Source of the DNA: Deltaproteobacteria bacterium
GTDB taxonomy: Bacteria > Desulfobacterota > Desulfarculia > Adiutricales > JAGVGV01
Length of the DNA: 24,000 nucleotides
Assembly (NCBI GenBank): GCA_020056895.1
Contig: JAGVGV010000387.1
Coordinates: 1 to 24,000, forward strand
Direction of reading: 5' to 3'
Shown piece after piece: positions 1 to 18,498 of the stretch. Position 1 is the first letter of the stretch. Every line of letters starts with the position of its first letter. The notes beneath the pieces are model-generated. The model was not told the DNA's origin, did not search any database, and worked only from the letters and a program-made list of their open reading frames with translations. The position numbers and the translations under genes were made by a program.

Positions 1-2678
1 AAGGAAATTATATAACTTATCAATACAACGATCAAAATCTGCCCACGGTGGCCACCGCCTATCCCAAAGGCGGCGGGTCCGGGCTCGCCATTCTCATGGC
101 CTATCACCCGGATTGGAACAAACCGGTCTCCATTACCGATCCCATGGGCCGGGTCACCTCCATGCAATACGATGCGGCGGGGAATCTGGCGGCCATCACC
201 CAGCCCACGGCCGGCGGTCAATCCGCTGTGACCACTTTTTCCCGGAATTCCAAAGGGCTGCCCACCAGTGTCACGTCTCCGGACGGGTCCGTGGTCCAGC
301 TCAGCTACGATGGGTCGGGAAATATGGTGATGGCCGTTCAAGACCCCGGGGGCTTGAATCTGACCACGACCTATGCGTATGATGCGGGTGGAGCCGTCAC
401 CGGCGTGACGGATGGGCTGAACAACACGACCACCATGGCGTACAACGCGGCGGGCCAAGTCACGTCCGCCACGGCCCCGCAACCATTTGGATACGTGACG
501 AATTTCGGGTACGATGCCGACGGCCGGCCGAACCTGGTCCGTCGGCTGGGGCTGCCCGTGCAGTCATATGCCACCACGTACACCGCCACGGATCAGGTGA
601 TGACAAGGGTCTCCCCCAAAGGCCACGTGACGACCTATGTGTACGACGGTCTGGATCGTCTGGCCCAGGTGACCGACGCGGAAAATCGATCCACTCAGTA
701 TCAATACGACGCCATTGGCCGCGTGGTCACGGTCATCAACGGCAACAATCAGCCCGAAGTCCGGTACACTTATACCCTCAACGGCAAGGTCCACACCTTG
801 ACCGACGCCAACAACAACACGACGACCTATACCTACGACGGCTACGACCGCCTGATCGCCACCACGTACCCGGATGGCAGCGCGGAATCCTATACTCTCG
901 ACGCCGCCGGCCGCGTCGTCCAAATGACCGCCCGCGATGGGAGAATTATCTCCTACACGTACGACAATCTGGACCGTCTGGTCTCGAAAACCGTCCCGGG
1001 TTCTGGTACGTATTCCTATACGTACGATTTGGCCGGAAGAGTTTTAACGGCCACGGATTCCAACGGTCCGATCCAAAACCAGTACGACCGGGTCGGTCGG
1101 TTGCTGGCGGTCACCTATCCCGAAAACCGTCTGGTTTCCTATGAGTACGACGCGCTGTCGAGGCGGACCAAGCTGGTCTACCCCGATAATTCCTATGTCT
1201 CCTACGCCTATGACCAGTTGAGCCGACTGAGCAGCATCGGCTATGACAACAACGGCCCCGGTATCGATCCCGGTCCGGCGGTGATCGCCTCGTACACCTA
1301 CGATTCGCTTTCGCGGCGCACTAAGCTCACGAATGGCAACAATACCAGCACCGCCTATACGTATTCGCTCGACAACAATTTGCTTACTCTGTCGCATCAA
1401 TGGTCCGCCGAAGGGTTGACCTTCACCTACGGCTACGACAAAACGGGCTTGCGGACCTCCCTGGATGTCTCGGATCCTCGTTTCGCGCCCTTGTTTGCCG
1501 TCAATGGCACGGAAACCAACACGCCGAACAACCTGAACCAATACGCCGTCGCCAACAACAAAACCCTCACTTACGACCGCAACGGCAACCTGACCAGCGA
1601 CGGCACGAACACCTACACCTACGACGCCGTTAACCAACTCACCGCCGCCGTTTCCACCAAGAATTCCACCTACTCCTACGACTCCTTCGGCCGCCGGTAT
1701 TCAAAAACCGTGGATGGCTCCACAACGGTCTTCCTCAACGACGGCCACCAGGAAATCATGGAGTACGATGGCTCGGGCAACATCCAGAAAAAATACGTCT
1801 TCGGCCCCGGCATCGATGAACCCATTATCTTGGAAGGAGCGGATAGTAGGTACTATTATTCCGCCGAGGCTTTGGGCTCCATTATCGGCCTGAGCGACCC
1901 AAACGGAGCCGTGGTGGAGCGGTATGCGTATTCGCCCTGGGGGGAGGTTAGTAATGCCGGTACAGTTGGGAATGGATATTTGTATACTGGGCGTCGGTTG
2001 GATAATGAAACGGATTCATATTATTATCGCGCACGGCAATACAACTATCGACAGAGGCGATTTTTCCAGATTGATCCGTTATTATTTGTACGTAACTTAA
2101 ATCTATATTTGTATGTGGTTAATAATTCGGTAAATAAAAGAGATCCATTTGGATTAATTGATGAGGACACTGCGATAGGTTGGGATTTACATCAACCGCA
2201 TGTTTTTCCCCAAGTAACCTGGACAGACGTTGAAGTTAGGGTACTTCACGGCATATTTTTTACACTGTTAGGTGCAGGGGCAGTTGGGACTGATTTCAAT
2301 CTTTCCTTGATATATGGTCCAGGATACTCTTGTGGTACAGAAAGAATAGATTTTCGTGATGCACCTGGTCAAATAACCGATTATGGCTACTATACGCCAT
2401 TAAAAAAACCGGCGTTTGGGAAGAATATTGGATCCAGCGCTTCCGCAGTAGTAGCATGGGGCAAAGGTGGTCCAGAGTCATGGGAAGGTCCCTTTCGTAC
2501 GCTATCATTTGGCTTCCGACGTTTCAGTGCTTCCGCTTTCAGCGATACATCTGGCAATTGGTTTGGAATCACACTTGGATTGAGCCACAGCAGTGCGCTA
2601 CCTCCCTTTGAAGATTATTCTTTGACGTATTCAGTTCCTGAATACAAAATAATCAGCGATTTTAAACCAAATGAATAA
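1..2678 (+). CDS. RHS/YD-repeat polymorphic toxin, 5'-truncated by the window edge; the core ends at DPFGL (2142-2156) and is followed by a ~173-aa unassigned C-terminal tip
   Basis: The frame is open from nt 3 (..ITYQYNDQNLPTVATAYPKGG..). It contains many YD-repeat units (YxYDxxGR/N). The terminal core signature is YYYRARQY..RRFFQIDP..NLYLYVVNNSVNKRDPFGL. GC drops sharply across the tip. Confidence 0.93.
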   Translation, partial: GNYITYQYNDQNLPTVATAYPKGGGSGLAILMAYHPDWNKPVSITDPMGRVTSMQYDAAGNLAAITQPTAGGQSAVTTFSRNSKGLPTSVTSPDGSVVQLSYDGSGNMVMAVQDPGGLNLTTTYAYDAGGAVTGVTDGLNNTTTMAYNAAGQVTSATAPQPFGYVTNFGYDADGRPNLVRRLGLPVQSYATTYTATDQVMTRVSPKGHVTTYVYDGLDRLAQVTDAENRSTQYQYDAIGRVVTVINGNNQPEVRYTYTLNGKVHTLTDANNNTTTYTYDGYDRLIATTYPDGSAESYTLDAAGRVVQMTARDGRIISYTYDNLDRLVSKTVPGSGTYSYTYDLAGRVLTATDSNGPIQNQYDRVGRLLAVTYPENRLVSYEYDALSRRTKLVYPDNSYVSYAYDQLSRLSSIGYDNNGPGIDPGPAVIASYTYDSLSRRTKLTNGNNTSTAYTYSLDNNLLTLSHQWSAEGLTFTYGYDKTGLRTSLDVSDPRFAPLFAVNGTETNTPNNLNQYAVANNKTLTYDRNGNLTSDGTNTYTYDAVNQLTAAVSTKNSTYSYDSFGRRYSKTVDGSTTVFLNDGHQEIMEYDGSGNIQKKYVFGPGIDEPIILEGADSRYYYSAEALGSIIGLSDPNGAVVERYAYSPWGEVSNAGTVGNGYLYTGRRLDNETDSYYYRARQYNYRQRRFFQIDPLLFVRNLNLYLYVVNNSVNKRDPFGLIDEDTAIGWDLHQPHVFPQVTWTDVEVRVLHGIFFTLLGAGAVGTDFNLSLIYGPGYSCGTERIDFRDAPGQITDYGYYTPLKKPAFGKNIGSSASAVVAWGKGGPESWEGPFRTLSFGFRRFSASAFSDTSGNWFGITLGLSHSSALPPFEDYSLTYSVPEYKIISDFKPNE

Positions 2679-2701: not shown

Positions 2702-3310
2702 ATGTCAGGAAAAAATATGGTGCTAAAAATATTTTTAAAGATAAAACAATTGTATACGTTCCATGTATTATTTTGTCGAGAATATGAGAATGATCTTGAC
2801 GAAATTTTTTTGGCAATATTCAATCAAAGACTCAGGTTAGGTCTAATTAGATGGGGGATGAAAATTGAAGAATATGATGTGAATTTTATTAAATTCTCGC
2901 CAGCCTCTCTATTTCTTAGATCATCGTCTAATCCCTTGGTTGGTGTCTGGTCAGGGGTTATTTATATAAGTTACAATGGTAGGACAATTAAAATTGATGC
3001 GGACTTAAATTGTTGTGAAATTATTTTTGTCATGTTAGGTATTTTAGTGGTATTTTCTAAAGGAGTTTATGAATTAGGAAATGGGAAACTTAACCCTTTT
3101 TGGGTAGTATTCATCCCAACAATTGTATCTATAATGACGTATATAATCGATAAGGTACTCAAAAAATCGTACTATCGTGCTTTTTTTCAGAAGCAATGGC
3201 ATATGACCGTAAAAGACTATAAGAAACGGAAAGAAGACACCTTGAAGAACCAAGAAAAAAAAGATTCCAAATGTCGTGAACGACTTGAGGATTTTTTTTT
3301 ACCATGGTAA
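2702..3310 (+). CDS. Candidate cognate immunity protein of the RHS tip (202 aa, two predicted TM helices)
   Basis: It lies 24 nt downstream of the RHS stop on the same strand and shares the low GC (~35%) of the toxin tip. Hydrophobic helices are EIIFVMLGILVVF and FWVVFIPTIVSIMTYII. No recognisable family motif. The function is inferred from position only. Confidence 0.55.
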   Translation: MSGKNMVLKIFLKIKQLYTFHVLFCREYENDLDEIFLAIFNQRLRLGLIRWGMKIEEYDVNFIKFSPASLFLRSSSNPLVGVWSGVIYISYNGRTIKIDADLNCCEIIFVMLGILVVFSKGVYELGNGKLNPFWVVFIPTIVSIMTYIIDKVLKKSYYRAFFQKQWHMTVKDYKKRKEDTLKNQEKKDSKCRERLEDFFLPW

Positions 3311-3394: not shown

Positions 3395-3817
3395 TCAACG
3401 AGATTCCGGTCGATCACGCTCAAAGCTCACATAAATTCCGTTGTAACCAATTCTCCGACGCACGCGTTTGGTCACCCCGATTGCTCGGCCAGCTGGAACT
3501 TGCGTCGTTTGACCGGCGTTATACTCTTGCTCAAGCCGTGTTGGCGCACTTTCGATACCAAGCCGCTTGAGAGCTTCGGCCGCCAGGGCGCGAAGTCCTT
3601 TTAGCGGCGATGGTATGCCGTCGAAGGGCGATTCAACTGCCCGAGCGTAAAGGCCTTGTCCGATTCTTACTAAGCGCCCCTTGCGAACCAACTGCCGAAG
3701 GGCGCGGCCAACCTGGTCGTAACCGCCAAGGTCCTTGAAATCCGAGCGAACGAACACGTCGCCGCGCTTGCGTTCTATTCGTTTTATAAGTCGGGTTTCC
3801 AGGGGGGGTGCTCTCAT
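3395..3817 (-). CDS. AbiEi_4/DUF6088-like winged-HTH protein (type IV TA antitoxin-like), no partner toxin adjacent
   Basis: The N-terminal pattern RIERKRGDVFVRSDFKDLGGYDQVGRALRQLVRKGRLVRIGQGLYA is typical of AbiEi N-terminal/DUF6088 proteins. It has its own promoter and a GGAG SD upstream of the ATG at 3817. Confidence 0.6.
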   Translation of the reverse strand: MRAPPLETRLIKRIERKRGDVFVRSDFKDLGGYDQVGRALRQLVRKGRLVRIGQGLYARAVESPFDGIPSPLKGLRALAAEALKRLGIESAPTRLEQEYNAGQTTQVPAGRAIGVTKRVRRRIGYNGIYVSFERDRPESR

Positions 3818-3836
3818 GATTTACTCCATAATTGTC

Positions 3837-3864
3837 AATATACGACATTTTTGGCACATTTCAA
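3837..3864 (-). promoter_or_regulatory. sigma70-type promoter for the AbiEi-like gene
   Basis: The minus strand reads TTGAAA (3864-3859), a 16-nt spacer, then TATATT (3842-3837), about 20 nt upstream of the SD/ATG. Confidence 0.45.
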
Positions 3865-3912
3865 CTAACAAATCTATAAGCTAAGCGGCGGAAATAGTTG
3901 ATTGTGGGTCGG

Positions 3913-3947
3913 AAAAAATAAAAAAGCCGGGTGGTCTGGTCCCGGCT
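3913..3947 (-). terminator. Rho-independent terminator downstream of ardC
   Basis: The minus-strand RNA has a 7-bp stem AGCCGGG/CCCGGCT with a 9-nt loop, followed by TTTTTTATTTTTT, immediately after the ardC stop (3956). Confidence 0.7.
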
Positions 3948-3955
3948 GGGGTCGT

Positions 3956-4738
3956 TTAGGCTGAAGGGGCAAGGATCAGCCCCAACACCTGCTCGACCTC
4001 GGACAATACCCGCATGCAGGCCGTCAGAGGGGACATGCCCGCCTTTTCGGCATAGCCCTCGATGTAGCGGTAGGAGTTGCCCAAGGTGTTCTTGGCCTCC
4101 TTGCCTACCATCCGGCACAGGGCCTGGGCGGACAGTTCGGCCACGATCTCCTGAAAGGGGTCCTGACCTGGTCGAAGGCGCCCCTTGACCTTCGCATGCG
4201 CGGCATGGGCCAATTCATGGAAAAAGACCGCTTCCTCCTGGCTGGCCAAGGCGATTTCTTTCCGGCCGGCCGAATAATACCCAAGGTATCGATAGTTCCC
4301 GGGCACGGCCTTCACGCCGATCCCCCACTCTTTGGCCTTTTCCATAAGGGGTAGATCAGGAACCTCGATCTGGCGATACGCCAGTTCTTGACCCTCGGTC
4401 TGCTCGTAAGCGAATACTGCTTTGACTCCGAACCCTGTGAGGAACCTAGCCTCCTCCTCTGTTTCTTCCTCCTGCCGTTTCTTGAAAAATGGCACGAGGA
4501 TGAAGATTCGGGCTTTCTCCCCTTTCTTGACGTACCGGCCGGCTTCGGTCCATTGCCGGAACCCCCTGGCGTCGGACGTTCCACCGATAAACATCAGAGT
4601 GCGGTTGAGCAGGGACCAGTTGGCCGAAGGGATGTCGTTGGCCGTCGGGAACATCGAATAGGCAACCGTTTCCGGAATGTCCCCGCTTTTGAACTGGCTA
4701 AGGATAGAAGTCAGGGCTGCATTGATTCGTGCGTCCAT
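3956..4738 (-). CDS. ardC: ArdC-like antirestriction protein (ssDNA-binding N-domain plus zincin HExxH metallopeptidase domain)
   Basis: The N-terminal pattern ANWSLLNRTLMF..FRQWTEAGRYVKKGEKARIFILVP resembles the ArdC/DUF1738 ssDNA-binding domain. The C-terminal part has FFHELAHAAH (HExxH). A GGAGG SD lies at 4743-4747. Confidence 0.72.
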   Translation of the reverse strand: MDARINAALTSILSQFKSGDIPETVAYSMFPTANDIPSANWSLLNRTLMFIGGTSDARGFRQWTEAGRYVKKGEKARIFILVPFFKKRQEEETEEEARFLTGFGVKAVFAYEQTEGQELAYRQIEVPDLPLMEKAKEWGIGVKAVPGNYRYLGYYSAGRKEIALASQEEAVFFHELAHAAHAKVKGRLRPGQDPFQEIVAELSAQALCRMVGKEAKNTLGNSYRYIEGYAEKAGMSPLTACMRVLSEVEQVLGLILAPSA

Positions 4739-4771: not shown

Positions 4772-4924
4772 GGCCAGACCGCCTTACCGGCCGACTCGTT
4801 CAGGGGCCAGCGCCAGGGAGCCCAAAGCAGTCACAGGTGTGGGCAATCCCGAAGGGTTGTCCATCGCCTTGACGGCTTAAGGGCTGGCGCTACACTGAAA
4901 GAGGTCGGCCAGGTGCGGTTGGCT
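4772..4924 (+). promoter_or_regulatory. Rod-like imperfect hairpin element (copy 1) carrying TTGACG-N16-TACACT in its 3' arm; candidate ssDNA (Frpo-like) promoter or structured leader for ardC
   Basis: Paired segments are GGCCGAC(4789-4795)/GTCGGCC(4904-4910), GCGCCA(4810-4815)/TGGCGC(4885-4890), GTCAcAGG(4830-4837)/CCTTGAC(4867-4873), and an apex CAAtCCC-gaa-GGGTTG. The -35 is TTGACG at 4869-4874 and the -10 is TACACT at 4891-4896. It is a paralog of 11467-11703, with compensatory stem changes between the two. Confidence 0.55.
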
Positions 4925-4983
4925 CGTTGGTTTGGGATTGAAAAAGACTATTTGAGGACTAGGCTTTATCCGCCTGGGCGATC

Positions 4984-5019: not shown

Positions 5020-5052
5020 ATATAAAACAGCCAACCGGTTGAGGGCTGGCTG
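5020..5052 (-). terminator. Probable rho-independent terminator after Uma2 gene 1
   Basis: The minus-strand RNA has a stem CAGCCA/TGGCTG (5052-5047 / 5033-5028) followed by TTTTATA. Confidence 0.45.
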
Positions 5053-5088: not shown

Positions 5089-5655
5089 TTAATCCCCCCA
5101 CCAGAGATTGGCCAGATCGATTTCCACCTCTTGAAACGGCTCGACCCGGACTTTGTCCTTTTCGGAGTAATTCCCCATAACCACCCAAGCGCCGTCCTTC
5201 AGCTTGAAGGCCTCCAGAAGCCTGTTGAGGGGGTCAATAAGCCAGAGGTATGAGACGTTGTGCGCGGCGTAGATGGGCATTTTGCGCACTCGGTCGATCC
5301 GAAAAGTACTTGGGGACAGAATTTCGCAGACCCAATCGGGCACGACGGTTGTCCAATTGCCTACTGGCGGCGCCGGCAAGCGTTCCTGCCTCCAGCCGGC
5401 CAAGTCCGGCACAAGCAGGTTCTCGCCCAGCATTATCTCCACGTCAATAAGGATAATCCACCCACCAGGACCGCCATGCTTCCCGAATTGATACGGCGGC
5501 TTCAATTCGCTTCCTATCGCACTCACGGCATTTGAATGCCGGTAATGCGGTTTGGGGAAGGCATGCAGTTCGCCTTCGATGATCTCGCCGGTCATGTTCT
5601 CCGGCAGGTTATACAGGTCGTCATAGACGGCCTTGCGTTTGGCTGGCATGGACAT
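5089..5655 (-). CDS. Uma2-family (DUF820) PD-(D/E)xK endonuclease, paralog 1
   Basis: Family-typical motifs are present: GEIIEGELHAFPKPHYRHS, GGWIILIDVEIMLGENLLVPDLAGW, PDWVCEILSPST. It is roughly two-thirds identical by eye to the ORF at 17923-18498. Confidence 0.85.
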   Translation of the reverse strand: MSMPAKRKAVYDDLYNLPENMTGEIIEGELHAFPKPHYRHSNAVSAIGSELKPPYQFGKHGGPGGWIILIDVEIMLGENLLVPDLAGWRQERLPAPPVGNWTTVVPDWVCEILSPSTFRIDRVRKMPIYAAHNVSYLWLIDPLNRLLEAFKLKDGAWVVMGNYSEKDKVRVEPFQEVEIDLANLWWGD

Positions 5656-9458: not shown

Positions 9459-9592
9459 CCGTAAGAATCGCCGCGAAACCCGTAAGAAAGGCCGTAAGAA
9501 AGTCGCCCGCGCCCGTAAGAATCGAGGCTCAATCTTACGGGCCGACCGCCGAAATTGTCAATCGTTATTTGAGGTTGCCGATTTTCTTACGG
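9459..9592. repeat. Array of six 8-9-bp sites CCGTAAGAA (four direct, two inverted) around the operon promoter
   Basis: Direct copies lie at 9459-9467, 9480-9488, 9492-9500 and 9513-9521 (spacing 21/12/21 bp). Inverted copies are TCTTACGG at 9533-9540 and TTCTTACGG at 9584-9592. Confidence 0.7.
9532..9561 (-). promoter_or_regulatory. Candidate sigma70 promoter of the five-gene operon
   Basis: The minus strand reads TTGACA (9561-9556), an 18-nt spacer, then TAAGAT (9537-9532). The -10 overlaps one repeat copy, and four further copies lie in the transcribed leader. Confidence 0.45.
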
Positions 9593-9903
9593 GGCTTTGT
9601 AAACCCCGCCAACCCCTCCTCTTCACCTTCCGGATTAAATCCCTTCTTCCCTGACCCTTCCCGCTCACGCGCCCTCGGGGCGCGGCCGCTTGCCGGCCTG
9701 CCTCCTTCCTTGGCTCCCGCCGCTCCTCCTCACCTCCTGGTGTTCTCCACGCCGCCTAAAAGGCGCATATCAACTCACGCCCTTCCTTCGGGGCGCCCGA
9801 GCACGCCGCCGGCGCACCCTTCGAAGATTTCCCGGGCGCAACTTTGTCCCCCCGTTTCAAACCGGGCATTTTTAAGGTGGTTTACCCGGCAAATACTTTT
9901 TTT

Positions 9904-9992
9904 AATATTCGTAAAGAGAAGTAAGTAAAAGTTGCCTGTCCGTCTTCGACCGGCCGAATACTTCTCTTTACGCATATTCAAAAGAAGTATTC
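9904..9992. repeat. Nested inverted repeats in an ORF-free region (oriT candidate)
   Basis: AATATTCGTAAAGAGAAGTA (9904-9923) pairs with TACTTCTCTTTACGCATATT (9959-9978) at 19 of 20 positions. GAATACTTCT (9956-9965) pairs with AGAAGTATTC (9983-9992). Confidence 0.6.
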
Positions 9993-10239
9993 AGGCCACA
10001 GCGTGCTAACCTGGTCTACACATCTAAAGCTTGCGAGCTATTACACTCCTTTCGCCGATGTATCACTGGCCCCAGTGATGTATCAAGAACGGAGCAATAT
10101 TCACTATGGCGTTGAAATTTCAAGCGGAGAAAATTGTAGTCTTGACTTTTTTCTTTCCGTTTATCCTCCTAGAAAAAAGTCATAGTCTCAATTTTTGGAG
10201 CGCGGAAACTTTCAAGAGTCCTTTATAAAAAGTCCGCAC

Positions 10240-10280
10240 AAAAAAAGGCCCCCTCTCCGCTTTCACGGTGAAGAGGCCCT
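10240..10280 (-). terminator. Probable rho-independent terminator after the 129-aa ORF
   Basis: The minus-strand RNA has a 9-bp stem GGCCUCUUC/GAGGGGGCC (two G-U pairs) followed by a run of 7 T. Confidence 0.45.
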
Positions 10281-10298
10281 TTCATTTTCCTGATCCAT

Positions 10299-10688
10299 TT
10301 ACTTCGCTTTCATGACGGCTGCGTCGTGTTCTTCTTTTAGCCCGTTATACTTCTTGAATCGGTCAAAGCGGTAGATGCTGACATAGCCGCTCATCGCCGT
10401 ATCCAACCGTCTGAATTCGTCTTTGATGTAGTTCGTATCCAGCTTCAAACTGCTTACTTCCTGCTCGGTCATATCAACTTTAACGATTATTCTTTCCAGC
10501 CGGCTGTCAATTCTGCTCATGTGATTATCCATTCTTTTGTCCAGCCGCTCGACTTCACTTTTCATTACGACCGCCAGTTCGTCAATCGCGTTATTCAAGC
10601 TACTTTCCACCCGGGCCGCTTCACTTTTAATCAAGGCAGCCAAATCATCAAGTGTAATTGGCTTTTGTTCTTTGTTGTTTTGAGTCAT
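10299..10688 (-). CDS. Small coiled-coil protein (129 aa), unknown function, low-GC
   Basis: An uninterrupted ORF with heptad-like E/K/R/L/D-rich sequence, followed by a terminator. No family motif recognised. Confidence 0.55.
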   Translation of the reverse strand: MTQNNKEQKPITLDDLAALIKSEAARVESSLNNAIDELAVVMKSEVERLDKRMDNHMSRIDSRLERIIVKVDMTEQEVSSLKLDTNYIKDEFRRLDTAMSGYVSIYRFDRFKKYNGLKEEHDAAVMKAK

Positions 10689-10748: not shown

Positions 10749-11240
10749 TCAATTCACCCGTTTTTCCTCATTGCCGTCTAGGTATGTTATCGCGGGTTTG
10801 CAGGAAAGATAGGATCCATCCGGCGCGACGATCACATGATCGGTCAGCTGAATGCCCAGAAGCTTGCCAGCGTCCGCGATCCGCCGAGTCAGCTCCAGAT
10901 CGGCCTCGGACGGCTCGACATCCCCGGACGGATGGTTATGCGCCAGGATGATGCTCGCCGCGTTCCGAAGAATCGCCGCCTTGAACACCTCGCGCGGGTG
11001 CACCAGGCAGGCGCTCAGGGTCCCGACCGCGACCAATTGCTGCCCCACCACCCGGTTTCTGGCGTCCAAGAGCAGACAGACCATGTTTTCCCGATCCGAA
11101 TCGGCGAAGGCTTTCATCCGGCAAGCCACGTCCTGGGCGCACGTCACGTTCTCGTACCGGGCCTCCGAGTCCTTGACCAGCTCCAGCCGGTAGACCGGCA
11201 CCCGGAGCGTTCGGTTTGTTTTCTTCATAGAGGTTTTCAT
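10749..11240 (-). CDS. radC: RadC-like JAB/MPN domain protein
   Basis: The JAMM motif ILAHNHPSGDVEPSEADLELT and the RadC-like core VVGQQLVAVGTLSACLVHPREVFKAAI are present. Confidence 0.9.
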   Translation of the reverse strand: MKTSMKKTNRTLRVPVYRLELVKDSEARYENVTCAQDVACRMKAFADSDRENMVCLLLDARNRVVGQQLVAVGTLSACLVHPREVFKAAILRNAASIILAHNHPSGDVEPSEADLELTRRIADAGKLLGIQLTDHVIVAPDGSYLSCKPAITYLDGNEEKRVN

Positions 11241-11244
11241 AGGG

Positions 11245-11430
11245 CTACCGCCTCGAGATCGAAACGATGCTCCACTCGGGCTGAGTGTGCGCCACGAATG
11301 AATGCAGGCAGTCCTCGGCTCGACCTTTTATATCCCGGGACCCCTCGCCTTCTTCGGCATAAGTCAGGACCAGCTCCTTGACCTTCGCGCCGTTTTCCAG
11401 CCGGATTCGATACTCTTGGTTGTTCGTCAT
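11245..11430 (-). CDS. Hypothetical 61-aa protein upstream of radC (orf61)
   Basis: The ATG is at 11430 and the stop lies 4 nt before the radC ATG. The composition is non-repetitive and protein-like, but the SD is weak. Confidence 0.4.
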   Translation of the reverse strand: MTNNQEYRIRLENGAKVKELVLTYAEEGEGSRDIKGRAEDCLHSFVAHTQPEWSIVSISRR

Positions 11431-11466
11431 ATGATTTTCGTTGACGGCTGTTGTTTAAATACCGGT

Positions 11467-11703
11467 GGCCAGGCCGTCTTACCGTCCGCCTGATTCCCCT
11501 GATGCGGCAGGGAGCCCAGGTTCGGTCAAGGTGTGGGTAACCGGCGGAGCGGAAGTCAGCCCGCCTTTACGGGTTCTTCGGCCTAAAGCCAAGGTTCAGT
11601 CAAGGCGGAATAGATGACTGGAGCGGAGCCGGTTATCCATCGCCTTGACGGGTTCTGGGCCGCCGCTACAATGGAAGAAGGCGGACGGTAAGACGGCCCC
11701 CGC
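11467..11703 (+). promoter_or_regulatory. Hairpin element copy 2 with TTGACG-N16-TACAAT in the 3' arm; candidate ssDNA promoter for orf61-radC and/or duplex promoter for the primase gene
   Basis: The outer stem is a perfect 19 bp (11472-11490 with 11680-11698). GTCAAGG (11525-11531) pairs with CCTTGAC (11643-11649). TAACCGG/CCGGTTA closes a ~95-nt insertion within the 111-nt apical domain. The -35 is at 11645-11650 and the -10 at 11667-11672. Blocks are conserved with copy 1 (CAGGGAGCCCA, GGTGTGGG, TCCATCGCCTTGACGG, CGCTACA). Confidence 0.55.
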
Positions 11704-11780
11704 CCACCCGGCCGGTACTCCCGAATTTGACTAAATATTCAATTTATTCAAGTATTTATATATAACCGAAAGGAGATGCT

Positions 11781-12782
11781 ATGACGACCAAAAACCACCC
11801 CGTCGATTTCAGGGACATAAAAAGCCGGGTCACCATGGAAATGGTGCTCCGGCGTTATGGTGTTTTCGACCGCCTGAAAGACCGGGGCGACAATCACACC
11901 GGCGTTTGCCCGATCCACGGCTCCGGCTCCAACCCGAACCAGTTTTCGGTCAGCCTGAAGAAAAACGTCTGGAACTGTTTCGGCGACTGCAAGGCTGGCG
12001 GCAATGTTTTGGATTTCGTGGCCAAGAAGGAAGGAGTCTCGATCCGGAAGGCGGCCCTCTTGCTCCAGGACTGGTTCGGATCATCAGCTTCGAGGTCAGC
12101 GCCGGCTTCCGACCCGGAACCGGCCAAACCGGCTCAAGCAAGACCGGCTAAAGAAGAAAGGCCGGTCTCGAACCCGCCCCTGAAATTCACCCTGAAAAAC
12201 CTGGCCGCCGACCATCCCTGGCTGGCCGAACGCGGTATTGACGCGGCCACGGCCGAGCATTTCGGCATCGGCTTTTTCGCCGGCCGGGGCATCCTTTCCG
12301 GCCGGATCGCGATTCCGATCTATAACCAGCGGGGCGACCTGGTCGCCTACGCCGGCCGCGCCGTAAACGAGGAACAAGCCAAGGCCGAAGGCAAGTACAA
12401 GCTTCCGGCCGGCTTCAACAAGTCCCTCGAAATCTACAACGGCCACCGCCTCGCGCCCGGCTTGTCGCTCGTCATCCTGGTCGAGTCCTTCCTTTCGGTC
12501 TGGGCGCTCCACCAGGCCGGCTTTCCGGCCGTGGCGGCGCTTATGGGATCAAGCCTTTCCGAGGCTCAGGCCGAGACCATCGCCGGGCTTCTGGGGCCGG
12601 CCGGACGCCTGCTCCTTCTTCTGGACGCGGACCCGGCCGGTCAGGCCTGCGCGGCCGACTGCCTGGCGCGCCTTGGCCATAAGGCCTGGGTGCGCGCCCT
12701 CGATCTCCGCCCTTACGGCCCCAAGCCGCACCAGCTCGCTCCGGATCAACTCCACGCCGTGATCGAAAACGCTTGCCAATAA
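11781..12782 (+). CDS. DNA primase, CHC2 zinc finger plus Toprim domain (DnaG/TraC-like)
   Basis: The zinc finger is CPIHGSGSNPNQFSVSLKKNVWNCFGDCKAGGNVLDFV. Toprim features are the LVESFLSVWALHQAG glutamate and LLLLDADPAG (DxD). An AAGGAG SD lies upstream. Confidence 0.85.
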   Translation: MTTKNHPVDFRDIKSRVTMEMVLRRYGVFDRLKDRGDNHTGVCPIHGSGSNPNQFSVSLKKNVWNCFGDCKAGGNVLDFVAKKEGVSIRKAALLLQDWFGSSASRSAPASDPEPAKPAQARPAKEERPVSNPPLKFTLKNLAADHPWLAERGIDAATAEHFGIGFFAGRGILSGRIAIPIYNQRGDLVAYAGRAVNEEQAKAEGKYKLPAGFNKSLEIYNGHRLAPGLSLVILVESFLSVWALHQAGFPAVAALMGSSLSEAQAETIAGLLGPAGRLLLLLDADPAGQACAADCLARLGHKAWVRALDLRPYGPKPHQLAPDQLHAVIENACQ

Positions 12783-13803: not shown

Positions 13804-14778
13804 TCAATCAAGAATACTTAAAGCCTTGTCGTCCCGGCCGTTTCGCCAGAAATCGCCCAGGATCGCCGCGCCGTTCCTGGGATCGATCCGGGACTCGGGC
13901 GCGAAATAGAAGAGCCGGGTGCCTTTGCCCCGTTCGTCCACTTCCTTGTTGGCCTTGACCAGGTTGGCCACCCGCCCCGGCAAACGGGTCACGGTCAGGA
14001 CCCGGAAACCGTCCAGCCCCAGCGCTTTCCTGGCCGCGCCGTCCCGGGCCGTGGCCCAATACCCGAGCATTTTCTTGAAATAGGCGCTCCGCCGGAAATC
14101 CGCGTGGCTGAAGATCGGCTCGCTGCCGGTGTCCGCTTCGAGGAAAAAGTAGTCCCGCCGCTTGCCCGGCCATTTGCCCGGGTCATAGTCCAAGGCGAAG
14201 AATCCGTCCGGGTTCAGGGCCATGGTCAGGTCCTGGTTGTTGCGCCGGATCGTCACCGGCCATTTGATCCGGGTCTGGTGTCGGCGGCAGCGGGCCACGG
14301 CTTCCCCCGACAGGCTGGCCAGGAGTTCGGGCTCTTCCACCAGACGCACCCCGCCGATTTTGGCCAGGCCCGTTCGCAAGGCCACGAAAAAACCGGCGAC
14401 CATGAGCTGGTGGCTGACGAAATTATCCTTGGCGGCCCGGTTGTTCCGCGCCCAGTCGATCCGCCGGCGGACGGCCAGGCCCCGTTCCACCAGGCAGGCG
14501 TACCCGGCTTGGCCGAGAAAATAAACCAGCGGCCGGGAACCGCCGCCCGGCACGAATTCCTTGAACTGGCCCGGCCAGCGGTCGAGGTACCCGGCGTTGA
14601 ACAGGAGCATGAGCCGACGGCGCAGATTGGTGGGGCTGCCGCCCAGAAGGGCCAGGATGTGGTCGGAGTTCAGGGCGCGGTAGGAAAGGACTTCGCGCAT
14701 GATCCGGAGATCGCGGTCAGTGAGTTGGAACGGCCCGACGGCCGTGCGGGTGGCCAGGGGCCGGGATTTTTTGGGCAT
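13804..14778 (-). CDS. Replication-relaxation family (Replic_Relax) protein
   Basis: The family pattern is present: LTDRDLRIMREVLSYRALNSDHILALL..RRRLMLLFNAGYLDR (wHTH), SHQLMVAGFFVAL, and NPDGFFALDY..YFFLEADTGSEP. Confidence 0.8.
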   Translation of the reverse strand: MPKKSRPLATRTAVGPFQLTDRDLRIMREVLSYRALNSDHILALLGGSPTNLRRRLMLLFNAGYLDRWPGQFKEFVPGGGSRPLVYFLGQAGYACLVERGLAVRRRIDWARNNRAAKDNFVSHQLMVAGFFVALRTGLAKIGGVRLVEEPELLASLSGEAVARCRRHQTRIKWPVTIRRNNQDLTMALNPDGFFALDYDPGKWPGKRRDYFFLEADTGSEPIFSHADFRRSAYFKKMLGYWATARDGAARKALGLDGFRVLTVTRLPGRVANLVKANKEVDERGKGTRLFYFAPESRIDPRNGAAILGDFWRNGRDDKALSILD

Positions 14779-14792
14779 AGGGGGATGATGCC

Positions 14793-14823
14793 GTTGCTTG
14801 AAACCTCACTGGTTTCCGGCAAC
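14793..14823. promoter_or_regulatory. Operator pair GTTGCTTGAAAC / GTTTCCGGCAAC upstream of the Replic_Relax gene
   Basis: 12-mers at 14793-14804 and 14812-14823, 15-45 nt upstream of the ATG at 14778 (minus strand). Confidence 0.5.
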
Positions 14824-14941
14824 AGCTGGTTATGGCCTGAAGTCAGGCGATTTTATAAATTGGGTTCCGACGCCAGCCGGCGGACGCGCGTGGAGCCGAA
14901 GCGAGTTCCTCCGCAAGATCGGTCGTCTCGGGGAATCGAGG

Positions 14942-14998
14942 TCGTCCGCCAACGTGTCGTTTTTAGCCCCCAGAAGGGCCGCAGGCGCGCTTTCGGGG
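14942..14998 (+). repeat. Diverged direct repeat R1 (pairs with 15838-15894)
   Basis: The 57-nt alignment has 44 identities. See the finding on the codon-periodic substitution pattern. Confidence 0.7.
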
Positions 14999-15837
14999 TC
15001 ATCGGGTAATTTTGGGTTGCCTTTGGCCGTCTCGACGCGTCCTGGGGCATTCTGGCGCGTTTGGCGGGTCACTTGTCAAAGGAAGGGGCCGCTTCCGGAT
15101 CGCCGTCCGGGTGTCCCCTCTCTTCGCCCAGGGCGTAAGTTTCTTTTGGCCGTTTGGCTTCCAGCCGGTTTTTGGCCTTGAACGATACGCTTGGCGGAAG
15201 CCGGTGGCGGATATACCGCCAGCCGGGCCGCTTCGGCCGCCGGTGAAGCCCGAACGGCCGTCGGCTTCGCGGTCGCGTTTTTTGAGCCTGGCTCAGAGAG
15301 TAAAGCCCGTAGCCGTCTGAAGCCGGTCGTTAAGCCTGTACCGCCAGGTGGCCAGTTAAAAAGCCGGGGTTCCGCTGTTTTGGCGGACAGCCGGTCCAAA
15401 GCCAGTGCCCGCCGTCACCAGCGAAGCGCGTGACCTCGCCCTTCTCACCCAGCCGGTCAGTCCTCGGCCGCCCAGTGGCGGTTGAGGGCAGGCTGGGCGC
15501 AAGCTCGGCCAGCGCCGGTTGCCGTCCCTCGTTTAGGCGAGGGGGGGCAACTTGAGGCGAGTAGAGGACGAGGGGGAAGGGCGAGGTCACGCGGTAGCGG
15601 GACGGCGGGCAGGCAGTTCGACCGACCGGTAGGCGGGCTTCTCAAGCCGGCAATCGCCGGCACGCCCTTTATCTCTAAGTGGCGATAGACACTTCAAGCC
15701 CGGCGGTAGCCGGTTGCTTTGTTATCAATCCGGGAACGGGCGGCGAACTTTCGCCGCTCGTGTTAAGCCCAGTCGGGAATGAGTCCGGCAGCGGTTACGG
15801 GGGGTGTAGTTTTTGCTATCTGGATGATGGGTTGACA

Positions 15838-16149: not shown

Positions 16150-16375
16150 AGGGTGCGAAATGCGACATCCTTGGGACGAACTACGACAACTTTGGGACGA
16201 AATGCGACTATTTTGGGATGAAAAATGGGTGAAATGCGACAGTTTTGGGACGAAATGCGACTATGGTATGGAATTGTCGTATTTGGTTCAAATGCGACAG
16301 TTTTGGGACGAGTGAAATGAAAAAACGGTATGGCGATGATATGCGACAATGGCATTGACTAATCGCATTTCATTG
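16150..16375. repeat. Iteron array of a theta-type origin (oriV)
   Basis: The core AAATGCGAC occurs at 16158, 16200, 16232, 16253 and 16290. Two perfect 18-mers TTTGGGACGAAATGCGAC lie at 16191-16208 and 16244-16261. Degenerate copies are at 16171-16187, 16302-16319 and 16341-16349. Inverted copies are at 16276-16284 and 16363-16370. The array sits directly upstream of the rep gene. Confidence 0.8.
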
Positions 16376-17922: not shown

Positions 17923-18498
17923 TCAGCTTTCCTCCTCTTCCAGCCACATATCGGCCAAATTGATTTCGACCTCGGCGAACGGTTCAGCCCGAACGCGGTC
18001 GTGTTCTCCATATAAACCGATAGCGACCCAACGGCTGCTTTCCAAACGGTAAACTTCCAGGGTTCTATCCACCGGATCGAGCAACCAGATGTATTGGACC
18101 TCAAACCGGCCATATACCGGCATCTTCTTGATCCGGTCATAACCCCGGGTGTTGGGTGACAGAATCTCGCAAACCCAGTCGGGTGGGACGGTCGTCCAGT
18201 TCTTTTTGGGCAACTTGGGCAAGCGCTCTTTTTTCCAGCCGGCCAAGTCCGGCACGAGCAGATTTTCGCCCAACATCACTTCTGGTTCTATCAGGATGAT
18301 CCACCCGCCCGGGCCGCCACCCCGGCCAAAGCGATACGGCGGAGCTAATTCTCCGCTTAAGGCGGATTCGATGTTGCTGTGGCGGTAATGCGGTCGAGGG
18401 AAAGCGTGCAGTTCGCCATCAATAATCTCGCCCGTCATGTTTGGCGGTAGCTTATAAAGGTCATCATAGACAGCCTCCCTTTTTTCTGGCAGGGACAT
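17923..18498 (-). CDS. Uma2-family (DUF820) endonuclease, paralog 2
   Basis: Same motif set as 5089-5655: GEIIDGELHAFPRPHYRHS, GGWIILIEPEVMLGENLLVPDLAGW, PDWVCEILSPNT. An AGGAGG SD is present. Confidence 0.85.
   Translation of the reverse strand: MSLPEKREAVYDDLYKLPPNMTGEIIDGELHAFPRPHYRHSNIESALSGELAPPYRFGRGGGPGGWIILIEPEVMLGENLLVPDLAGWKKERLPKLPKKNWTTVPPDWVCEILSPNTRGYDRIKKMPVYGRFEVQYIWLLDPVDRTLEVYRLESSRWVAIGLYGEHDRVRAEPFAEVEINLADMWLEEEES

Follow-up and report, generated by a model that had tools for sequence, protein, structure and literature searches.

To our knowledge, promoters that act on single-stranded DNA have been demonstrated only in enterobacterial plasmids of the IncF and IncI groups. 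In the sso elements (ssoA/ssoU) of rolling-circle plasmids, RNA polymerase sees a promoter-like structure formed by folded single-stranded DNA and starts an RNA, in one orientation only. For the hairpins of F and IncI1 the ssDNA-promoter mechanism has been established experimentally (PMC12672017, PMC9849209, and Masai & Arai 1997 as cited therein). Further ssDNA promoters of pESBL and F, assigned to classes 2 and 3, are found upstream of klcA, ardA and M.EcoGIX (PMC12672017), and Frpo-like candidates have been put forward by Samuel et al. 2024 (PMC11541004).

Here we describe a hairpin element in a stretch of 24,000 nucleotides from a Deltaproteobacteria bacterium (contig JAGVGV010000387.1), hereafter the window. 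The backbone is characterized by a Rep3 initiator with iterons, a Replic_Relax (MOBL-type) relaxase and a DnaG-type primase. Two homologous copies of the element are present: copy 1 faces an ArdC-like anti-restriction gene, and copy 2 lies between the primase gene and a divergent unit of three genes, orf61-radC-orf129 (Table 1). Copy 2 is probably a single-strand promoter of the Frpo/ssi type, which would drive orf61-radC-orf129 from the putative transferred strand; this reading is built on sequence comparison.

Table 1. Positions, in window coordinates, of the two element copies, their parts and the neighbouring genes and signals.
Feature	Position	Strand	Details
Copy 2 of the hairpin element, folded strand	11472..11698	+	227 nt; inverted repeat I1
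Outer stem of copy 2, 5' arm	11472..11491	+	perfect 20 bp; exact reverse complement of 11679-11698
5'-arm segment opposite the -10	11492..11503	+	non-complementary in the fold; most variable part of the family
Apical insert of copy 2	11545..11628	+	84 nt; closed by TAACCGG 11538-11544 / CCGGTTA 11629-11635
-35 hexamer of copy 2	11645..11650	+	TTGACG; inside a fully paired stem
-10 hexamer of copy 2	11667..11672	+	TACAAT; in an internal loop, partly open
Outer stem of copy 2, 3' arm	11679..11698	+	pairs with 11472-11491
Leader template	11431..11471	-	conserved and Shine-Dalgarno-poor, ..GGCCACC..AACAACAG..AAAATCAT, before the ATG; leaders compared across members
orf61, first gene of the predicted operon	11245..11430	-	without Pfam match
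RadC-like JAB domain gene, second gene	10749..11240	-	PF04002, E = 1e-40
orf129, third gene	10299..10688	-	without significant family
Intrinsic terminator of the orf61-radC-orf129 unit	10240..10283	-	RNA fold -27.5 kcal/mol, then TTTTTTT
Promoter-like block of the primase, outside the hairpin	11727..11755	+	TTGACT, 17 nt, AAGTAT
DnaG-type primase gene, neighbour of the element	11781..12782	+	Pfam; homologues
Copy 1 of the hairpin element	4777..4915	+	139 nt; reads into ardC; covariance model 109.7 bits
Boxes of copy 1	TTGACG 4869-4874, TACACT 4891-4896	+	N16 spacer
ArdC-like anti-restriction gene	3956..4738	-	Pfam ArdcN; annotated 'antirestriction protein ArdC'; GGAGG ribosome-binding site
Terminator of the Uma2 gene, upstream of copy 1	5028..5052	-	shields copy 1 and ardC from read-through

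Copy 2 is a long imperfect hairpin on one strand, whose DNA fold reaches -80 kcal/mol (z = -9.6) and is equalled by 0 of 200 shuffles. Stability beyond chance is also found for copy 1 (-52.1 kcal/mol, z = -8.4) and for two elements from related contigs, L130 and L106 (z = -8.0 and -6.2 respectively); a covariance model of the family recognizes copy 2 with 72.7 bits (E = 9e-17). The four sequence blocks that the original prediction had described as common to both copies were all recovered: TCCATCGCCTTGACGG occurs at 4860 in copy 1 and at 11636 in copy 2, CAGGGAGCCCA at 4814 and 11508, and GGTGTGGG and CGCTACA align between the two. The claimed promoter boxes, TTGACG-N16-TACAAT with the same spacing as in copy 1, are likewise in place; they lie on the 3' arm of copy 2 and match the consensus at 10 of 12 positions. 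The -35 is embedded in a stem in which CCTTGAC (11643-11649) pairs with GTCAAGG (11525-11531), these pairs being invariant or nearly so across the family. The -10, as anticipated, lies opposite a largely unpaired segment: at the position of TACAAT in the 3' arm, the 5' arm when reverse-complemented gives ATCAGG, and the box is thus present on one arm only.

Some dimensions of the hairpin differ from those originally given. The outer stem is perfect, as claimed, and measures 20 rather than 19 bp; the distance from its base to the orf61 ATG is 41 nt, the earlier figure of 36 nt being obtained only when counting from 11467; and the apical insertion, put at about 95 nt, comes to 84 nt between its closing stems. 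At the position of this insert the other members of the family have an apex of only 4-18 nt. Inside the insert are degenerate duplicates of two segments of copy 2, the -35 block and the 5'-arm stretch that pairs with it. A three-way-junction fold through these internal duplicated segments was considered and rejected, its energy of -45.5 kcal/mol as against -77.7 kcal/mol for the nested hairpin being indicative only, since the forced pairs in the constraint were one base off. A repeat search of the window found no further long hairpin of the same type.

By means of covariance model and pattern scans we identified 11 distinct members of this family in related plasmid contigs, most of them 125-140 nt long, each of which adopts the same architecture when folded alone. 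The scans differed in their yield: the metagenome scan returned 11 loci, four of which (L115, L116, L121 and L125) are chance matches; a first pattern run on genome contigs, built from the two window copies only, had no match, and a second returned one true member (L128) with two chance matches. In viral contigs the 16-mer TCCATCGCCTTGACGG has 104 exact matches, all of them attributable to chance as none of the 104 is accompanied by the other blocks, and a relaxed pattern has none. A BLAST search of the 72,556 plasmids of PLSDB with copy 1, copy 2, the L117 element and the surrounding 2.2 kb gave no match.

Across the family it is pairing that is retained. The paired changes noted earlier between the two window copies are real: GCGCC/GGCGC in copy 1 becomes GCGGC/GCCGC in copy 2, CAATCCC/GGGTTG becomes TAACCGG/CCGGTTA, and the outer stem has more compensatory changes. 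Counted over 10 of the 11 members, 95.4% of the stem cells are paired and 12 of the 35 pairs show compensatory (both-side) changes, a level reached by 0 of 500 shuffles, although this test overstates the significance, given the kinship of the sequences and an alignment fitted to the model. When the arms are slid as a control, pairing falls to 26-47%. An independent run with MAFFT and RNAalifold yields eight compensatory pairs, and the apical and outer stems covary as well (copy 1, copy 2, L118c and L130). The idea of a folded nucleic acid in which pairing is conserved is in this way strongly supported. Templated repair from arm to arm inside palindromes could mimic compensatory change; simple homogenisation, however, is argued against by the conservation of mismatches, wobbles and a bulge, which comprise the unpaired -10 region, G.T wobbles and, in GGTGTGGG/TCCATCGCC, a T that bulges out.

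The imperfections also tell the strands apart. Among the non-Watson-Crick paired cells on the box-bearing strand there are 17 G.T against 2 A.C, and therefore it is this strand that folds and not the mRNA-sense strand. The box-bearing strand is the better-folding one in 10 of the 11 members, and model scores are 66-142 bits on the forward strand of the loci as against 16-41 bits on their reverse strand. All 11 members have kept the boxes, with the -10 reading TACAAT in all except copy 1, which has TACACT. Folds, 5'-arm reverse complements and column identities agree on a paired -35 and an open or mismatched -10 on one arm only; GCTACA is invariant in the 10 aligned members, and the least conserved part of the element is the segment opposite the -10, with column identities of 0.5-0.7. 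The hexamers sit on the 3' arm, at a spacing within the 16-18 nt expected of such promoters, and point to the hairpin base; L106 attains this spacing via the fold only: here the spacer between -35 and -10 is 20 nt in the linear sequence and becomes 16 bp in the fold by the bulging of 4 nt, which suggests that the element is active when folded.

The arrangement of genes around the element is similarly constrained. In nine of the 11 members an ATG on the opposite strand, for which the folded strand is the template, follows past the 5' base of the hairpin at a distance of 35-41 nt; the ATG of ardC is 38 nt from the model start of copy 1. The corresponding distance in L106 is 81 nt, and L118b and L123 have no ORF near the hairpin base. 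Behind L118b come a c-di-GMP-I riboswitch and an ORF of 347 aa, and hence L118b looks like an mRNA start too. The genes behind the elements are of establishment and anti-defence types: ArdC, RadC (three times), an ArdC-N-like protein and DUF2958, together with small unknown ORFs. The reading that the boxes act through the hairpin base into orf61 and radC, as originally proposed, thus has strong comparative support, to which the near-fixed distance to the opposite-strand ATG and the anti-restriction and establishment character of the genes there contribute. A box scan of the gene strand upstream of ardC and orf61 found no sigma-70-like promoter, and terminators flank both units. L105, the closest relative, keeps orf61-radC without the element; it has either lost the element or never had one, which shows that the element can be dispensed with. 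In L105 the sequence CCGCGACTTACCGGC may be a remnant of the 5'-arm base, which suggests a deletion as opposed to an insertion.

Four loci combine an element with a relaxase gene, and in every one of them the strand with the boxes serves as template for that gene, of the Replic_Relax type. In pLS20 the nicked strand is the template strand of the relaxase gene (PMC5313138), and the gene geometry of the F plasmid, with the relaxase gene and the Frpo-driven genes on one strand, agrees with this. These parallels lend indirect support to the + strand as the one transferred in conjugation. Two regions of the window are candidates for oriT: 14779-15600, located upstream of the gene for the relaxase, and 9500-10230, which has iteron-like repeats and a conserved inverted repeat. 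An oriT in the position it has in pLS20, ahead of the relaxase gene, would make the two copies late-entering, some 22 and 29 kb behind the nick and outside the classical leading region; for copy 2 the two candidate regions thus imply opposite positions, leading or late. A search for a common oriT sequence across the lineages found conservation with L105 only.

These features can be combined into the following mechanism. When the + strand becomes single-stranded, most plausibly during conjugation, copy 2 would snap into its long imperfect hairpin and thereby restore a duplex -35, while the -10 of the 3' arm would be displayed in a bubble that is open from the outset and in which the facing strand would be free to vary. 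Host sigma-70 RNA polymerase could then bind and initiate about 7 nt beyond the -10, the predicted start, deduced from the box positions, lying near 11679 opposite template base ~11491. The 5' arm would act as template, with the initial ~20 nt of the predicted RNA copied from its outer-stem part, and the polymerase would leave through the hairpin base to proceed along the single strand. The expected product is a leader of about 60 nt followed by orf61, radC and orf129, ending at the terminator of the unit. Expression would be transient: synthesis of the complementary strand would abolish the hairpin and so silence genes that have no recognisable duplex promoter. Copy 1 would play the same role for ardC, and the RNA may also prime complementary-strand synthesis.

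The original prediction further suggested that copy 2 may be of dual use, in effect a temporal switch firing leftward when single-stranded and, as duplex, rightward from ~11679 into the primase gene with a leader of about 100 nt. A box scan finds TTGACG-N16-TACAAT to be the only strong promoter-like site on the + strand upstream of the primase, and three lineages have the element in the primase-proximal part of a divergent region (copy 2; L106, ~200 nt upstream; L110, ~830 nt upstream). The primase, however, has a promoter block of its own, TTGACA/T-N17-AAnnAT near the ribosome-binding site, conserved in six of seven lineages, and this block is also present in two lineages that lack a hairpin at this place, L105 and L114, and in L130, where the hairpin is elsewhere. 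Moreover, rightward transcription from copy 1 would run antisense into the convergent Uma2 gene, the next gene rightward is convergent in L130 as well, the three successive modules of L118 have no same-strand gene, and the 20-nt linear spacer of L106 makes for a poor duplex promoter; the primase neighbourhood itself is explained by shared synteny without selection. Hence, although compatible with a single-strand promoter and not exclusive of it, the dual-use proposal is not supported, and we consider it unlikely. Somewhat less likely again is a promoter that switches direction, whereby one element would time two opposite units by the physical state of the plasmid and duplex firing would add to primase expression; were it true, the recurrence on the primase side in copy 2, L106 and L110 would reflect selection and not inherited synteny.

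Other readings dispense with the promoter for orf61. Frpo has been described as both a promoter and a source of primers (Masai & Arai 1997, as cited in PMC12672017), and with this precedent the element might be a priming signal only, a single-strand initiation site comparable to the sso of rolling-circle plasmids, at which RNA polymerase or the neighbouring plasmid primase makes a short primer for the complementary strand and any mRNA is incidental. Three lineages have a DnaG-type primase gene next to the element, and close to the hairpin base of L118b and L123 no ORF begins; yet a pure priming site has no need of the 35-41 nt linkage to an ATG and the conserved leader in 9 of 11 members, the genes faced are of anti-restriction and establishment types, L118b with its riboswitch and long ORF resembles an mRNA start, and several copies per plasmid, one for each gene unit, suit promoters better than origins, all of which makes this reading improbable. 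Still less credence is due to the two remaining ones. In the pLS20 family, ardC and further establishment genes are preceded by long structured regions (PMC8708921), and the present folds are very stable under RNA energy parameters too, so that a structured RNA could be envisaged: a 5'-UTR element of the minus-strand mRNAs, with a role in processive antitermination or regulation akin to EGeRS of pLS20, or an antisense RNA, with the promoter outside. But the wobble asymmetry and the energies place the fold on the strand opposite to the mRNA-sense one, the gene strand to the right of both copies has no promoter-like site, copy 1 has a terminator directly upstream, and Rfam matches nothing in the window and nothing overlapping the elements in six loci; invariant hexamers at a 16-nt spacing and a -10 on one arm would also go unexplained. 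Operators show sequence conservation over ~20 bp. An ordinary duplex promoter of the primase, preceded by a palindromic operator, or else a selfish palindrome inserted here and functionless when single-stranded, would account for the aim of the copy 2 boxes at the primase and for the presence of the element in the window and its absence from L105, as with a mobile or deletion-prone palindrome. It is equally hard to credit: the maintenance of pairing along a stretch exceeding 100 nt, with 12 compensatory pairs, is not operator-like, the imperfections too have been kept, what accompanies the element constantly is an ATG on the opposite strand and no same-strand gene, and the L105 remnant suggests a deletion. 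Integron attC sites, PriA-type primosome assembly sites and terminators were set aside too, as the invariant promoter hexamers would remain unexplained and the elements lie upstream of linked genes.

The reading of the element as a promoter active on single-stranded DNA would extend this principle to an unrelated backbone, that of plasmids with Rep3 replication, a MOBL-type relaxase and a DnaG-type primase in uncultured organisms. Natural covariation in the family brings out the constraints under which such an element might operate: a paired -35, a one-arm -10 facing a variable segment, wobbles and a bulge, and a leader of 35-41 nt. At 125-140 nt the element is compact enough for dissection in vitro. 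It further offers a handle for annotation, by which genes right behind it become candidates for early-entry or anti-defence functions; examples are orf61, orf129, the 125-aa ORF of L118, the 59- and 87-aa ORFs of L130 and the DUF2958 gene.

The closest counterparts are the Frpo/ssi elements of class 1, namely Frpo1-2 of F and ssi1-3 of ColIb-P9. These are likewise long imperfect hairpins on the neighbouring genes' template strand, with -35 and -10 on the 3' arm and a mismatched -10 region; transcription leaves through the base, the F ssb gene being ~46 nt away as compared to 35-41 nt here. As in our plasmids, there are multiple copies per plasmid, each placed before an establishment or anti-defence unit, and the driven genes are on the strand of the relaxase gene. 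Differences concern length (~325 nt for F Frpo, 125-140 nt in most members here), the plasmid backbone, and the boxes, which in F Frpo are farther from the consensus. With boxes this near the consensus, the elements here, unlike F Frpo, may be able to fire from the duplex too. The covariance model, applied to the F leading region with filters off, had a best score of 11.8 bits (E = 0.16) and no match to Frpo; by this result and that of the PLSDB search, our elements are not members of the class 1 sequence family. The class 2 and 3 promoters and the candidates of Samuel et al. are a precedent for non-homologous hairpins with rebuilt boxes before anti-restriction genes, and for discovery by structure and box consensus outside the classical Frpo. 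By their description they are set apart as enterobacterial, or as products of similarity and consensus searches without covariation, whereas the present family comes from contigs of uncultured organisms and has compensatory changes in its support. Rolling-circle sso elements make a short primer uncoupled from any ORF, in contrast to the tight coupling to ATGs on a Rep3 replicon with iterons, and the present elements do not belong with them. The EGeRS of pLS20 resemble our elements in being repeated, highly structured and placed before ardC and establishment genes on plasmids with a relaxase of the Replic_Relax family; they are, however, much longer and have no promoter in the fold (PMC8708921). 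As the transferred strand of pLS20 is the non-template strand for its establishment genes, EGeRS cannot be ssDNA promoters, whereas our elements do have boxes, and driven genes and relaxase gene alike have the folded strand as their template. Judged by sequence, the element is a new family that appears to embody a principle already known from the F and IncI plasmids.

The element between orf61-radC and the primase gene (copy 2) is characterized by a long imperfect inverted repeat with both promoter boxes in its 3' arm; a shorter homologue (copy 1) lies beside ardC. The single-stranded DNA of copy 2 folds at -80 kcal/mol, against -47.6 +/- 3.4 kcal/mol for dinucleotide shuffles (z = -9.6). Its boxes match the sigma-70 consensus at 10 of 12 positions. 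In the fold the -35 box is inside a continuous stem and the -10 box inside a mostly open internal loop; the 5' arm facing the latter reads ATCAGG as reverse complement, not TACAAT. The figures of the original prediction were correct except for details: the sequence blocks it listed are common to both copies and the outer stem is perfect, albeit of 20 rather than 19 bp, while the apical insertion is present but measures 84 nt instead of ~95 nt, and the position of TAACCGG is corrected in the table.

Features of the window, with equivalents in related contigs where named
Feature	Position	Strand	Remarks
RHS-repeat protein	48-2678	+	876 aa
202-aa ORF	2702-3310	+	after RHS gene; no family match
AbiEi/DUF6088-like regulator	3395-3817	-	adjoins ardC
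ardC	ATG at 4738	-	left of copy 1; own GGAGG leader
Copy 1	4777-4915		TTGACG-N16-TACACT; fold z = -8.4
Terminator of Uma2 gene	5028-5052		upstream of copy 1
Uma2-family putative endonuclease genes (two)	5089-5655; 17923-18498	-
Candidate oriT 1	9500-10230		iteron-like CCGTAAGA repeats, inverted repeats, 180-nt core
Iteron-like CCGTAAGA/TCTTACGG repeats	9513-9594		upstream of ~180-nt core
Further 25-nt inverted repeat	9899-9983		upstream of ~180-nt core
Inverted repeat in ~180-nt core	10130-10154 / 10171-10195		25-nt arms
Terminator of orf61-radC-orf129	10240-10283		strong, intrinsic
orf61, radC, orf129	orf61 ATG at 11430	-	left of copy 2
Copy 2	11472-11698	+	227-nt imperfect inverted repeat
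Copy 2 outer stem	11472-11491 with 11679-11698		perfect 20 bp
TAACCGG of copy 2	11538-11544
Apical insert of copy 2	11545-11628		84 nt
-35 box TTGACG of copy 2	11645-11650	+	3' arm
-10 box TACAAT of copy 2	11667-11672	+	3' arm; 16-nt spacer after TTGACG
Conserved primase promoter block	11727-11755; L105 4869-4897; L106 9919-9947
Relaxase, Replic_Relax family	13804-14778	-
Candidate oriT 2	14779-15600		upstream of relaxase gene
Rep3-type iterons GAAATGCGACAnnTTTGGGACGA	16150-16370		at least 5 copies, just upstream of rep; common to L105

PLSDB and Rfam searches gave no match to the hairpin element. Relatives were reached in two ways: primase homologues led to the element in the L110 group of contigs, to one in contig L130 and to a diverged one directly upstream of the L106 primase, and metagenome and genome contigs scanned with a degenerate pattern yielded L117, L119 (identical to that of the MAG contig L128), L123 and three copies in L118 (L118a, b and c). 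Altogether 11 distinct members were found. Each is recovered, with a score of 34-142 bits, by a covariance model based on eight sequences; the reverse strand of the same loci reaches only 16-41 bits. In the model-based alignment of 10 members, standard pairs occupy 95.4% of cells and 12 of 35 pairs show changes on both sides (20 cells); all of 500 column shuffles fall short on every one of five measures, and pairing drops to 26-47% when the partner is slid by 1-3 columns. The same helices, with 8 compensatory pairs, come out of RNAalifold on a MAFFT alignment made blind to structure. Stems outside the model covary too among the four window-type members, whose apical stems are CAATCCC/GGGTTG, TAACCGG/CCGGTTA, TAACCC/GGGTTA and TAAGTC/GACTTA; the outer stem, CCGTCTTACCGTCCGCC/GGCGGACGGTAAGACGG in copy 2, reads GCTTTACTGGCTGTCC/GGACAGCCAGTAAAGC in L130. 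The element is real and non-random, pairing rather than sequence is conserved as had been proposed, and this family with covariation supports both the structural observation and its main interpretation as a putative hairpin promoter.

GCTACA is invariant in all 10 aligned members, the -10 box is TACAAT in 10 of 11 (TACACT in copy 1), and the -35 box reads TTGAC in eight aligned members and TTTAC in the other two. Conservation within the element is lowest in the 5'-arm segment opposite the -10 box. The imperfections are themselves conserved: the -10 box stays open, and GGTGTGGG/TCCATCGCC keeps its T.G and G.T wobbles and a bulged T. This argues for selection of one specific imperfect fold, not for palindrome homogenisation. 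The most diverged member (L106:9675-9802) has a minimum-energy fold in which a small separate hairpin from the 5' flank replaces the outer stem. Between its two boxes lie 20 nt in the linear sequence, a spacing unsuitable in duplex DNA, but 16 bp in the modelled fold, where four bases (ACTA) bulge out; this is a hint in favour of the mechanism proposed below.

Which molecule folds bears on whether the hairpin might be a 5'-UTR RNA. At paired positions the non-Watson-Crick cells comprise 17 G.T/T.G versus 2 A.C/C.A, and with DNA parameters the strand bearing the boxes (the box strand) gives the stabler fold in 10 of 11 members. The sequence bias and the modelled stabilities together indicate that the folded molecule is the box strand; this being the template strand of the adjacent genes and not their mRNA, the 5'-UTR reading is ruled out. 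Promoter use in duplex DNA is a separate question, the original prediction having suggested that the element may be 'dual-use', with the boxes also serving the primase. Given their strength, the boxes may fire rightward in duplex DNA. Such firing does not characterize the family; copy 1, L130 and L118 have no same-strand gene downstream of the boxes. Nor does the primase need the hairpin, its own block (TTGACA/T, 17 nt, AAnnAT) being present near the ribosome-binding site in six of seven lineages, among them the hairpin-less L105 and L114 and also L130, whose hairpin lies elsewhere. The closest relative is L105, with a 67% identical primase and an unchanged gene order. There the orf61-primase gap is just ~112 bp (4814-4925) and the hairpin is absent; the gap retains CCGCGACTTACCGGC, resembling the 5' arm base (CCGCCTTACCGGCC in copy 1), which suggests that the hairpin was deleted.

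The genes behind the elements lie on the opposite strand, with an ATG 35-41 nt past the 5' base in 9 of 11 members. They encode ArdC at copy 1, orf61, RadC and orf129 at copy 2, an ArdC-N-like 98-aa protein in L110, L117 and L119, RadC in L118a, a 125-aa protein without assigned family in L118c, and a 59-aa and an 87-aa ORF followed by RadC in L130; in L106 the ATG of an 87-aa ORF is 81 nt past the base and a DUF2958 gene follows. The usual leader is A-rich, conserved and devoid of a Shine-Dalgarno sequence (GCCACCTCA..TAACAACAG..CATATG), unlike the primase and ardC genes with their clear GGAG sites. Its conservation extends over window 11431-11471 and the equivalents in L110, L117, L119, L118a and L118c. 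Hairpin and leader seem to travel together as a cassette ahead of different genes. A scan for sigma-70-like promoters on the - strand upstream of the ardC and orf61-radC-orf129 units found no site. In L118 a c-di-GMP-I riboswitch (3477-3575, +; Rfam RF01051, 52 bits) sits between the L118b hairpin (2982-3106, rightward) and a 347-aa ORF (3595-4638), so the predicted single-strand promoter would feed a second-messenger riboswitch. L123, where no ORF start is near the hairpin, conserves the initial ~130 nt of the L118b leader.

The 84-nt apical insert of copy 2 contains copies of the element's own parts: 15 of the 16 bases at 11563-11578 (CGCCTTTACGGGTTCT) match the -35 block of the 3' arm, and 17 of the 19 at 11585-11603 match its 5'-arm partner, with short GGAGCGGA repeats on both sides of the duplicated segments. 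The insert is therefore not foreign DNA; with its flanking repeats it looks like part of the element duplicated within the tip. Folding energy strongly favours the long nested hairpin over the alternative two-hairpin junction (-77.7 vs -45.5 kcal/mol). As other members have merely 4-18 nt there, the insert is probably dispensable.

The window has a plasmid-like content: a Rep3 initiator with iterons, ParA, ParB, a coupling-protein-like ATPase, ArdC, RadC, a DnaG-type primase and a type III restriction-like enzyme, with one Uma2 gene immediately upstream of copy 1. The iteron region upstream of rep is the vegetative origin. The RHS protein, the 202-aa ORF (possibly an immunity protein) and the AbiEi/DUF6088-like regulator are cargo unusual on a ~33-kb plasmid. 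In the window as in L110, L106 and L130, the relaxase gene has the box strand as its template; by analogy, this geometry in syntenic relatives is consistent with the box strand being the transferred one, and in F the leading and tra genes likewise share one coding strand. Two regions might be oriT. A ~180-nt non-coding core (10100-10285) is 90% identical to L105, against 70-81% for neighbouring non-coding stretches; together with 9500-10000 it may be oriT or a regulatory RNA locus; were 9500-10230 oriT, copy 2 would be within a 1.3-kb leading region. Were it 14779-15600, both copies would enter late. Between the relaxase and rep genes, a 31-nt block (15032-15062, CGACGCGTCCTGGGGCATTCTGG.GCGTTT; in L105, 8886-8916 and 8570-8595) is 97% identical between window and L105 in otherwise diverged surroundings. 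The block, whose core CCTGGGGCATTCTGG occurs twice in L105, is a possible protein-binding or nick region. The same intergenic region has a perfect 18-nt inverted repeat (15427-15444 / 15576-15593, 131-nt spacer).

We infer, by analogy with the single-stranded-DNA promoter Frpo of plasmid F, a mechanism in which the hairpin would form when the + strand is single-stranded, rebuilding a duplex -35 box and presenting the -10 box as a pre-opened non-template strand. RNA polymerase would start ~7 nt downstream of the -10 box with the 5' arm as template, leave via the hairpin base and proceed into the genes. Duplex formation would destroy the hairpin and, as an ordinary promoter is absent, silence them. 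The F and IncI1 hairpins have been shown to be transcribed, with matching start sites and with expression that is early and transient (PMC12672017, PMC9849209; Masai & Arai 1997, cited therein). The covariance model of the window family finds nothing in the F leading region. The elements are a new, non-homologous sequence family of a known kind, with predicted function as single-stranded-DNA promoters. The plasmid lineage that carries them is uncharacterised; of its primase relatives, the more distant ones bear the labels of Nitrospirota and Desulfobacterota MAGs. The Frpo upstream of ssb folds as a ~325-nt hairpin with its base ~46 nt from the ssb ATG, and the three consecutive modules on one strand of L118 resemble the multiple Frpo copies of F.
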